64,000 nucleotides of DNA from Escherichia coli. Lineage in GTDB: Bacteria > Pseudomonadota > Gammaproteobacteria > Enterobacterales > Enterobacteriaceae. The stretch is taken from NCBI RefSeq assembly GCF_003334405.1, contig NZ_QOWM01000004.1; one strand, written 5' to 3'. The notes beneath the pieces were generated by a model. That model saw nothing but the letters and a program-made list of their open reading frames with translations. It was not told the origin of the DNA and did not search any database. Of this stretch, positions 42,584 through 45,466 are shown piece by piece; the stretch's first letter is position 1, and each line of letters opens with the position of its first letter. The translations under genes and the position numbers were made by a program.

Positions 42584-44526
42584 CGCCTTTGCTCGAATTA
42601 AAGGATATTCGTCGCAGCTATCCTGCCGGTGATGAGCAGGTTGAGGTGCTGAAGGGCATCAGCCTCGATATTTATGCGGGTGAGATGGTCGCGATTGTTG
42701 GCGCTTCGGGTTCCGGTAAATCGACCCTGATGAATATTCTCGGCTGTCTGGATAAGGCCACCAGCGGCACCTATCGCGTCGCCGGTCAGGATGTTGCCAC
42801 GCTGGACGCCGATGCGCTGGCGCAACTGCGCCGCGAGCATTTCGGCTTTATTTTCCAGCGTTACCATTTGCTTTCGCATTTAACCGCCGAGCAGAACGTT
42901 GAAGTACCCGCCGTCTATGCTGGTCTTGAGCGGAAACAGCGACTGCTTCGTGCCCAGGAGTTGCTGCAACGGCTGGGGCTGGAAGACCGTACAGAGTATT
43001 ATCCGGCACAGCTTTCGGGTGGTCAGCAACAGCGCGTCAGCATCGCGCGGGCATTGATGAACGGTGGTCAGGTAATTCTTGCCGATGAACCAACCGGCGC
43101 ACTGGACAGCCATTCTGGCGAAGAGGTGATGGCGATCCTGCATCAGCTGCGCGATCGTGGGCATACGGTGATTATCGTCACCCACGATCCGCAGGTCGCT
43201 GCTCAGGCCGAGCGGGTGATCGAAATTCGCGACGGCGAAATTGTGCGCAATCCTCCCGCCATTGAAAAAGTGAATGTTACTGGCGGGACGGAACCTGTTG
43301 TCAACACGGTGTCTGGCTGGCGGCAGTTTGTCAGCGGTTTTAACGAGGCGCTGACGATGGCATGGCGGGCGCTGGCAGCGAATAAAATGCGTACTTTACT
43401 GACCATGCTGGGGATTATTATCGGTATTGCGTCGGTGGTTTCCATTGTCGTGGTGGGTGACGCCGCCAAACAAATGGTGCTGGCGGATATTCGTTCTATT
43501 GGTACGAATACTATTGATGTCTATCCCGGGAAAGATTTTGGCGATGACGATCCGCAATATCAGCAGGCGCTGAAGTACGACGACTTAATCGCCATCCAAA
43601 AACAACCGTGGGTCGCCTCAGCCACACCTGCCGTCTCGCAAAACCTGCGCCTGCGTTATAACAATGTTGATGTTGCTGCCAGTGCCAATGGCGTGAGCGG
43701 CGATTATTTTAATGTCTATGGCATGACCTTCAGTGAAGGAAACACCTTTAATCAGGAGCAGCTGAACGGTCGTGCGCAGGTCGTGGTTCTCGACAGTAAT
43801 ACTCGCCGCCAGCTTTTCCCCCATAAAGCAGATGTGGTTGGCGAGGTGATTCTGGTCGGCAATATGCCCGCCAGAGTCATTGGTGTGGCGGAAGAAAAAC
43901 AGTCGATGTTTGGTAGCAGTAAAGTGCTGCGTGTCTGGCTACCTTACAGCACGATGTCCGGGCGAGTTATGGGCCAGTCGTGGCTTAACTCCATTACTGT
44001 CAGGGTGAAAGAAGGATTTGACAGCGCCGAGGCGGAACAGCAACTCACGCGTTTACTTTCACTGCGCCACGGAAAGAAGGATTTCTTTACCTGGAACATG
44101 GACGGCGTCTTGAAAACTGTTGAAAAGACCACACGTACTTTACAACTGTTTCTGACGCTGGTGGCGGTGATTTCGCTGGTGGTGGGCGGTATTGGTGTAA
44201 TGAATATTATGCTGGTGTCAGTGACCGAGCGGACGCGGGAAATTGGCATTCGCATGGCTGTAGGTGCGCGAGCAAGCGATGTTTTGCAACAGTTCCTGAT
44301 CGAAGCCGTACTGGTTTGCCTGGTCGGTGGCGCGTTGGGAATAACACTGTCACTGTTAATTGCTTTCACCTTGCAGCTTTTCTTACCCGGCTGGGAGATT
44401 GGTTTTTCACCGTTGGCGCTGCTGCTGGCGTTTCTCTGCTCGACGGTCACCGGGATTTTATTTGGCTGGTTACCCGCACGAAATGCGGCACGACTGGATC
44501 CAGTAGATGCTCTGGCACGAGAGTAA
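42580..44526 (+). CDS. macB: Macrolide efflux ABC transporter MacB (648 aa)
   Basis: Track ORF; ATGA overlap with macA; Walker [10 protein letters not shown], signature LSGGQQQR, C-terminal FtsX-like permease. Confidence 0.93.
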
Positions 44527-44566: not shown

Positions 44567-44598
44567 GCCTTTAGGATGTACACAATGAGACAGAAGAG

Positions 44599-44823
44599 CT
44601 ATGCGACTGCCGCTTCTACTTCGACGGGCACAATAACACTGGCGTGATTGCCTTTTGGCCCCTGGTGGACATCAAACTGAACGGATTGTCCAGCTTTTAG
44701 CGTTCTGTAACCATCCATCTGAATGGTGGAATAATGAGCGAAAATATCTTCGCCGCCGCCTTCAGGGCAGATGAAACCAAACCCTTTGGCATTGTTGAAC
44801 CACTTAACAGTACCCTTTTCCAT
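44599..44823 (-). CDS. cspD: Stationary-phase cold-shock-domain protein CspD (74 aa)
   Basis: Track ORF 44599..44853 trimmed to MEKGTVKWFNNAKGFGFI... (cold-shock RNP motifs). Confidence 0.9.
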   Translation of the reverse strand: MEKGTVKWFNNAKGFGFICPEGGGEDIFAHYSTIQMDGYRTLKAGQSVQFDVHQGPKGNHASVIVPVEVEAAVA

Positions 44824-45145
44824 GCTTCGACATCCTTCGCAAATCTTATACAAGTAAGATGGAATAAACCGGGGTCAGAGAGGGGGCTGTTCAAAACCTC
44901 GCCAACTCTAGAAATACAATTTAGAGAATTAGGGCGAGCCGTCAAGCATTTGACAGGGGACAAGGGGCAGGTATGAATCAAAAATTTGAAGCAGTTAACG
45001 CTATTGACAGGAATGTGACAGATGTCGCTGATGCCAACGATAGATGATAGTTATCTATCATGTGGAGTAGATTGGTCAGGCAAATAAGCTCTTGTCAGCG
45101 GCAGGGCGTTCTGCCGATAACCGTAACCGAAGATGATAACTGACA

Positions 45146-45466
45146 ATGGGTAAAACGAACGACTGGCTGGACTTTGATCAACTGGCGGAAGAAAAAGTTC
45201 GCGACGCGCTAAAACCGCCATCTATGTATAAAGTGATATTAGTCAATGATGATTACACTCCGATGGAGTTTGTTATTGACGTGTTACAAAAATTCTTTTC
45301 TTATGATGTAGAACGTGCAACGCAATTGATGCTCGCTGTTCACTACCAGGGGAAGGCCATTTGCGGAGTCTTTACCGCCGAGGTTGCAGAAACCAAAGTG
45401 GCGATGGTGAACAAGTACGCGAGGGAGAATGAGCATCCATTGCTGTGTACGCTAGAAAAAGCCTGA
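45146..45466 (+). CDS. clpS: ClpA adaptor ClpS (106 aa)
   Basis: Track ORF; recognised protein. Confidence 0.93.

Follow-up and report, generated by a model that had tools for sequence, protein, structure and literature searches.

An inverted repeat over the clpS promoter of Escherichia coli is very probably the core of an attB site used by a PICI lineage

Introduction

The spacer between cspD and clpS of Escherichia coli contains a short inverted repeat, and the question raised by this locus is which protein, if any, the repeat serves. The stretch of DNA analyzed here, 64 kb in length and referred to throughout as the window, has the K-12-like gene order macB, cspD, yljB, clpS, clpA. An earlier note on this DNA had described the repeat as an operator-like site for a dimeric protein controlling clpSA and/or cspD. 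We describe the geometry of the repeat, its state in complete E. coli genomes, the mobile elements found there and its relation to the clpS promoter, and we weigh these observations against a function in host regulation.

The elements that bear on this question are phage satellites. A PICI is defined by an int gene, an alpA-like regulator and a primase/replication module within ∼9–15 kb and by the lack of tail or lysis genes, and the capsid-forming type additionally carries capsid, protease, portal, HNH, TerS and TerL genes. Eight PICI att sites have been identified in E. coli, and prophages do not use them (PMC6092414). The capsid-forming family has six attB sites, four of which are common to classical PICIs (capsid-forming PICI paper).

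Results

Geometry and surroundings of the inverted repeat

The repeat consists of a left arm ATGATAG at 45044–45050, a center TTAT at 45051–45054 and a right arm CTATCAT at 45055–45061, and the two 7-bp arms form a perfect inverted match. The bases and coordinates reported previously are correct, as are the copy of GATAG just ahead of the repeat at 45039–45043, with a second copy at 45046–50, and the distance of 85 bp from the end of the repeat to the clpS ATG (45146). The description of this sequence as a perfect 18-bp palindrome has to be withdrawn, because the reverse complement of TTAT is ATAA and the center therefore lacks self-complementarity; the sequence is a 7-4-7 inverted repeat with a non-palindromic center. 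An overlapping perfect inverted repeat had been missed, in which GATAGAT at 45039–45 is matched by ATCTATC at 45053–59 across a 7-nt spacer. This 7-7-7 repeat is the better fit to the biology of the site.

On its own, the 7-4-7 repeat is statistically unremarkable, and repeats of this kind are common in the window. Perfect inverted repeats with 7-bp arms and loops of 0–10 nt number 79, compared with 54.5 ± 9.4 in Markov shuffles, and nine have a 4-nt loop (4.65 ± 2.2 in the shuffles). A scan of the 64-kb window for further copies of the repeat at up to two mismatches found none.

The site does lie between the divergent genes cspD and clpS, as had been claimed, but the intergenic region is not empty. 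macB ends at 44526 and cspD occupies 44599–44823 on the minus strand, its ATG 221 bp from the repeat. On the plus strand, RefSeq places yljB, a 24-codon small-protein gene, at 44973–45047 (Weaver 2019, as cited in a passage of PMC10117436), and the TGA stop codon of yljB (45045–47) is within the left arm of the repeat. Downstream of the site, also on the plus strand, clpS (45146–45466) is followed by clpA.

Phage satellites are inserted at the repeat in about 7% of complete E. coli genomes

We used the 322-bp cspD–clpS spacer as a megablast query against 5,426 complete E. coli genomes. The spacer is uninterrupted in 5,057 of these, and in the remainder the match breaks at the repeat. Junction queries built from S21EC, with a genome counted at ≥80% query coverage, detected the attL junction in 365 and the attR junction in 366 of the 5,426 genomes, an occupancy of ∼6.7%. 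These junction counts indicate that nearly all non-empty sites hold this type of element.

The inserted elements are phage satellites of 9–14.5 kb, either PICIs or capsid-forming PICIs, located at one identical position. The 14.5-kb S21EC element encodes a tyrosine integrase, an AlpA-like regulator, Icd-like genes, a primase and SSB, and then a packaging set made up of major capsid, prohead protease, portal, connector, HNH, TerS and TerL; tail genes are absent from its annotation. This gene content is the set described for capsid-forming PICIs. At the identical position, IHE3034 carries the 10.5-kb classical PICI EcCIIHE3034 and CEC96047 a PICI of ∼9 kb, and in all three elements the same 412-aa integrase gene directly follows yljB. 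RefSeq annotations of L003, L004 and L005, compared with the published definitions, agree in gene content with a PICI or capsid-forming PICI.

One genome record is broken at this site. The chromosome record of E. coli Z1323HEC0475 (L168, NZ_CP148326.1 / NZ_CP148327.1) is linearised exactly at window position 45043|45044, and the accompanying 42-kb 'plasmid' record is a chromosomal fragment that carries P2-like tail genes, then ybjL through macB and cspD, and ends in GATAG. These two records reflect an assembly broken at the att site, with one piece mislabelled as a 'plasmid'.

The att core is identical to a published PICI core

The sequence ATGATAGTTAT (45044–45054), which corresponds to the left arm plus the spacer of the repeat, is identical in attB, attP, attL and attR, and was found at both junctions in three E. 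coli genomes. The empty site attB, cgatagATGATAGTTATCTATCATgtgg, reads cgatag-ATGATAGTTAT-CTATCAT-gtggag. The corresponding attL, cgatagATGATAGTTATtTATCA(g/t), reads cgatag-ATGATAGTTAT-tTATCA(g/t)-(t/c)tagtg, and attR, tataaATGATAGTTATCTATCATgtgg, reads (c/a)tataa-ATGATAGTTAT-CTATCAT-gtggag. The predicted attP, tataa-ATGATAGTTAT-tTATCAt-ctagtg, was found as a contiguous sequence in the IMG/VR contig L086, 180 bp upstream of the integrase gene. Because L086 also ends in attR and clpS, its attP may reflect tandem elements or run-through assembly rather than an excised circle. Among the matches listed, at least 22 metagenomic attL junctions with several P′ arm sequences all fall at one position, and the flanks are of E. 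coli type in all 22.

This site is already known, as the published PICI att core for cspD–clpS. Table S1 of Fillol-Salom et al. 2018 (ISME J, PMC6092414) gives the att core ATGATAGTTAT and the att gene cspD-clpS for EcCIIHE3034 (NC_017628.1 920272–930825) and EcCI18098, and the published 11-nt core is exactly window 45044–45054. The int–att integration assay in that work was carried out with EcCICFT073, which has another att site (PMC6092414).

True phages were rejected as users of the site: a blastn comparison of attP with 50,697 phage records gave no match, and the closest integrase among these records is 47% identical, in line with the published statement on prophages. An IMG/VR match, L087, was discarded as a chance similarity to an unrelated A+T-rich contig. 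The integrase gene was found upstream of clpS in none of 80 representative-species loci. Taken with the junctions and the published core, the sequence comparisons lead us to consider it highly probable that the repeat is the core of attB for a PICI lineage that includes both classical members, such as EcCIIHE3034, and capsid-forming ones.

A half-site and overlap register common to four att sites

The 412-aa integrase ORF is located ∼180 bp from attL and has matches to Pfam Phage_integrase, the catalytic domain (2e-18), to Arm-DNA-bind_3, the N-terminal arm-binding domain (3e-15), and to PHROG_1. The adjacent gene is AlpA-like and matches excisionase/regulator PHROGs. GGTGTAGTTAAT occurs as two direct copies on both attP arms, together with several (C/T)TTGTTCG repeats, and we regard both kinds of repeat as candidate arm-type or accessory sites.

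Integrases that are 75–77% identical to this one occur at three further published PICI cores: GGACATATTT, ATAACAGCA and ACATTATTAATATCGTGA. On the element side, all four att sites consist of the identity block followed by (A/T)TTTATCA-nTTAGTG, and repeated GGTGTAGTTAAT arm motifs are common to all of them. When the four sites are aligned on TATCA, the 7 nt ending 4 nt leftward always lie inside the identity block (GATAGTT, GGACATA, AACAGCA and ATCGTGA). In the same register, the K-12 attB of one sister site reads TGAAGTAT / GGGCATA / TTTATTCA and that of another reads TTAAGAAT / AACAGCA / ATAAATAA.

Because this register fits the sister att sites, we read the cspD–clpS site in the same way. 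A putative left core-type half-site B, (C)GATAGAT, would occupy 45038–45045 on the plus strand and is the inverted partner of 45053–59. The predicted 7-bp overlap for strand exchange, GATAGTT (45046–45052), is wholly inside the attB/attP identity block. The putative right core-type half-site B′, ATCTATCA (45053–45060, minus strand), is identical at seven of eight positions to its attP counterpart C′, ATTTATCA. B matches the attP half-site C, the (a/c)TATAAT-type sequence TATAAAT, and also the B sequences of the sister sites, with T.A..AAT in common. At the sequence level, attB (GATAGAT/GATAGTT/ATCTATC) and attP (TATAAAT/GATAGTT/ATTTATC) therefore both present inverted half-sites around a shared overlap. 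Within the repeat, attB and attP differ only at 45055 (C versus T), which places the crossover to the left of that position. An alternative register centered on the 7-4-7 repeat, TGATA-N6-TATCA, may be considered, but the mismatch at 45055 would then fall inside the overlap.

Two further observations concern these sequences. E. coli EC21Z-014 (L289) has a 2-bp GA deletion corresponding to window 45039–45040, in the left half-site, which cuts its annotated yljB down to 22 codons. The deletion leaves the 7-4-7 repeat untouched, and another divergent strain likewise has the repeat intact. For EcCIDI14, the published 'att site core' is CGGTGTAGTTAATGGTGTAGTTAATT (att gene 'IS110 transposase'), a sequence that is found as a repeated arm motif on both attP arms of these islands, with copies at 612–640 and 14870–14895 of L003 and at 1–23 and 233–255 of L086. 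Because it is identical to this repeated motif, it is probably not a true chromosomal core.

The repeat overlaps the main clpS promoter

We placed the Cappable-seq table of MG1655 transcription starts (Ettwiller 2016, PMC4782308) on the window with a coordinate offset of 876,990, fixed by an offset scan on 26 listed starts. At no other offset do 23 of the 26 have a purine at +1 together with a clear excess of A at −11 and T at −7. With the offset validated in this way, the clpS start at U00096.2 position 922,070 (score 35.85) is G45080 on the plus strand, and among the plus-strand Cappable-seq starts listed between cspD and the clpS ATG it is the strongest. The −10 hexamer of the main clpS promoter, TAGATT (45068–45073, plus strand), is exactly at −12 to −7 of the mapped start. 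The only plausible −35 element is the candidate ATGATA at 45044–49, a weak match (4/6) with an 18-bp spacer. The repeat covers −36 to −19 of this promoter.

For cspD, no minus-strand start is present among the Cappable-seq entries listed; the sole promoter-like match of a promoter scan faces cspD. Several other features of the region can be recorded here. A plus-strand start at 44593 (U00096.2 921,583) has a score of 277, the highest in that part of the table; it is located just past the terminator of macB, 6 nt ahead of the cspD stop codon, runs antisense through cspD, has a putative −10 element CACAAT and may give rise to an antisense or 3′-overlapping RNA. Two plus-strand starts inside clpS, at 45241 (score 40.9, −10 TAAAGT) and 45311 (score 14.4, −10 TCTTAT), presumably mark internal promoters that serve clpA. 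An imperfect inverted repeat in the clpS 5′ leader at 45094–45121 (+15 to +42), GTCAGCGGCAG / CTGCCGATAAC, has 11-nt arms with 82% complementarity and a 6-nt loop, and its conservation in other genera is partial. A sub-threshold Rfam match to the cspA thermoregulator (39 bits versus a gathering score of 78) covers the leader and 5′ coding region of cspD (44700–44928, minus strand) and probably reflects paralogy and not a shared RNA switch.

The left part of the site is conserved across genera

In an alignment of the clpS upstream region from 12 Enterobacteriaceae genera, the −10 hexamer TAGATT is conserved in 11, and the block ATAG-ATGAT(A/T)-GTTATCT (−40 to −24) is conserved, with a variable right arm. 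The conserved block comprises 17 bp, ATAGATGAT(A/T)GTTATCT, at 45040–45056. Conservation in orthologous regions had been proposed as a check on the operator, and by this measure the 7-4-7 symmetry is not kept in close relatives; only the left arm and spacer are. All seven arm positions pair only in E. coli and E. albertii; five of the seven do so in Salmonella and in a cryptic Escherichia clade, and three to six in other genera. The 7-7-7 dyad is perfect in Salmonella, and its inner part, AGAT-N7-ATCT, is retained in most genera.

Coding by yljB was rejected as the cause of this conservation, because conservation of the DNA persists outside Escherichia even though the frame is disrupted there. 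The clpS promoter role of the site probably accounts for the conservation of its left part across the Enterobacteriaceae. Conservation of the spacer at −29 to −24, however, exceeds the needs of sigma-70 and is unaccounted for by the attB role.

Further upstream, inside the yljB ORF, a 24-nt block, AAAATTTGAAGCAGTTAACGCTAT (44981–45004), is invariant in the 12 genera, and TGTGA-N6-TCGC (45014–45029) is also conserved; the centers of the two blocks are 29 bp apart. Two CRP sites have reportedly been described for cspD at −83.5 and −112.5, and we presume that these two blocks correspond to them.

Possible host functions of the repeat

The site might have value to the host solely as the −35 region and spacer of the clpS promoter, its palindromic look being a coincidence of A+T-rich sequence and the islands using the site for its conservation. 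The mapped start at 45080 with its conserved −10 element, the frequency of 7-bp-arm inverted repeats in the window and the unconserved right arm are all in line with this explanation. It is, in fact, compatible with an attB function, and denies only the importance of the dyad. On that point the attachment sites themselves argue otherwise: the attP core has the same dyad architecture and the sister sites share the half-site pattern, which makes the symmetry relevant to the integrase. We regard a pure promoter role, with an accidental dyad, as a possible but somewhat unlikely account.

An operator for a host protein is unlikely, although it could coexist with attB. Here, the dyad or the 45040–45056 block would bind a host factor that tunes or represses clpS–clpA through the −35 region and spacer, or one that affects cspD from around −140. 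The location of the repeat at −36 to −19 of the mapped clpS start is compatible with an operator; positions −40 to −37 and −29 to −24 are invariant or nearly so across the 12 genera, beyond what a −35 hexamer needs; and the AGAT-N7-ATCT dyad is present in most genera, extending to the full 7-7-7 repeat in Salmonella. Against these points, only E. coli and E. albertii retain the 7-4-7 symmetry, so that the two half-sites are not both conserved, and no second copy with up to two mismatches exists in the 64-kb window. The conservation can also be explained largely by core-promoter function. In the literature searched, we found no regulator or binding site on the repeat and nothing useful on the clpS promoter or its regulators. 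Compared by eye with consensus sequences for Fur, DnaA, IHF, TrpR, MntR, Lrp, ArcA and Nac, the site gave poor or low-information matches; Fur reached ∼9/19, and the ATA-N9-TAT pattern is too common to be informative.

The nearest reported site is a PhoB ChIP-seq site for cspD/clpS at 45003–45020, 24 bp upstream of the repeat, and the expression values of cspD and clpS change little in that study (PMC10294691). The PhoB motif, TGTCACATTCCTGTCAAT, is the reverse complement of 45003–45020. Insertion of an island would part this PhoB site from clpS.

The operator proposal thus survives only in part. The dyad is indeed best read as a recognition site for paired protomers, and it does lie on the clpS control region, at −36 to −19 of G45080; the evidence, however, favors the tyrosine integrase of a satellite over a host transcription factor, no host regulator to go with the repeat was found in the literature searched, and none of the observations made here calls for one.

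Very improbable is an RNA hairpin that terminates, stabilizes or processes a yljB read-through transcript, for although folding predicts a 7-bp stem closed by a 4-nt loop (centroid −6.8 kcal/mol) that starts at the yljB stop codon, its z-score is −1.6 with 13 of 200 shuffles folding equally well, the stem is A–U-rich rather than G+C-rich and is followed by no U-tract, the terminator scan made no call, the pairing is lost in other genera instead of covarying, Rfam holds no match, and the sequence is absent from the main clpS mRNA because it lies upstream of the main clpS start.

Discussion

The best interpretation of these results is that the inverted repeat marks the attB core of a PICI lineage, embedded in the clpS promoter. 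In the mechanism that we propose, two integrase protomers would bind the inverted half-sites GATAGAT (45039–45) and ATCTATC(A) (45053–60), and strand exchange would take place over the 7-bp overlap GATAGTT (45046–52) with the attP core TATAAAT-GATAGTT-ATTTATCA. The 7-4-7 repeat would be a by-product of this arrangement: by chance, the overlap and the left half-site both open with GATAG. Integration is conservative. The yljB stop codon survives in attL, and attR retains the host sequence from −36 onward, so that the core promoter of clpS is rebuilt and only the DNA upstream of −36 is exchanged.

A bolder proposal, which we consider quite doubtful, would combine the two functions: the 17-bp block at −40 to −24, which takes in spacer bases not read by sigma-70, would be the operator of some host regulator of the ClpS–ClpA N-degron machinery, island integrases would have evolved to dock there, and insertion could rewire clpS–clpA. 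If this were true, replacement of the DNA upstream of −36, with its CRP-like and PhoB sites and the yljB read-through, could measurably alter clpS–clpA control in ∼7% of E. coli.

With the attB interpretation, a speculative operator is replaced by a documented function, that of one of the eight reported PICI docking sites of E. coli, occupied in roughly 1/15 of complete genomes. What the present analysis adds is a proposed half-site and overlap register common to four sister att sites, and the coincidence of the att site with two host features, the −35 region and spacer of the experimentally mapped promoter of clpS and the stop codon of yljB, both of which are rebuilt upon integration. These additions are perhaps useful for work on satellites or on Clp regulation and leave current understanding unchanged.

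Several known systems can be compared with this site. Palindromic repressor operators that cover a −35 element and spacer share its dyad symmetry and its position at −36 to −19; they differ in that no cognate regulator was found here, the symmetry is unconserved across genera and the 64-kb window contains no further copy. Another such system is lambda attB, whose B–O–B′ site recombines with an attP carrying arm-type sites. Both have inverted half-sites of 7–8 bp on either side of a 7-bp stretch shared by attB and attP, and here too the integrase has a separate arm-binding domain, candidate arm-type motifs are present on both attP arms and an excisionase-like gene is adjacent. The sequence is unrelated to that of lambda, however, and the integrase belongs to the Arm-DNA-bind_3 (P4-like) group and not with lambda Int.

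The integrases of P4-family satellites, which target gene 3′ ends, frequently those of tRNA genes, and restore the gene upon insertion, have the same domain architecture as the integrase described here. The target is rebuilt in this case as well, with the yljB stop codon at attL and clpS −36 to +1 at attR, but it comprises a promoter together with the last part of a small ORF and is not a tRNA gene. The PICI cspD–clpS att site of EcCIIHE3034 and EcCI18098 is the same site: EcCIIHE3034 (L004) was re-examined and has the same junctions, whereas the window holds the empty attB form. Fillol-Salom et al. 2018 give the identity block only, to which the half-site and overlap register and the overlaps with the yljB stop codon and the clpS promoter are added here. 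Among the users of the site are also elements that carry a full set of capsid and packaging genes.
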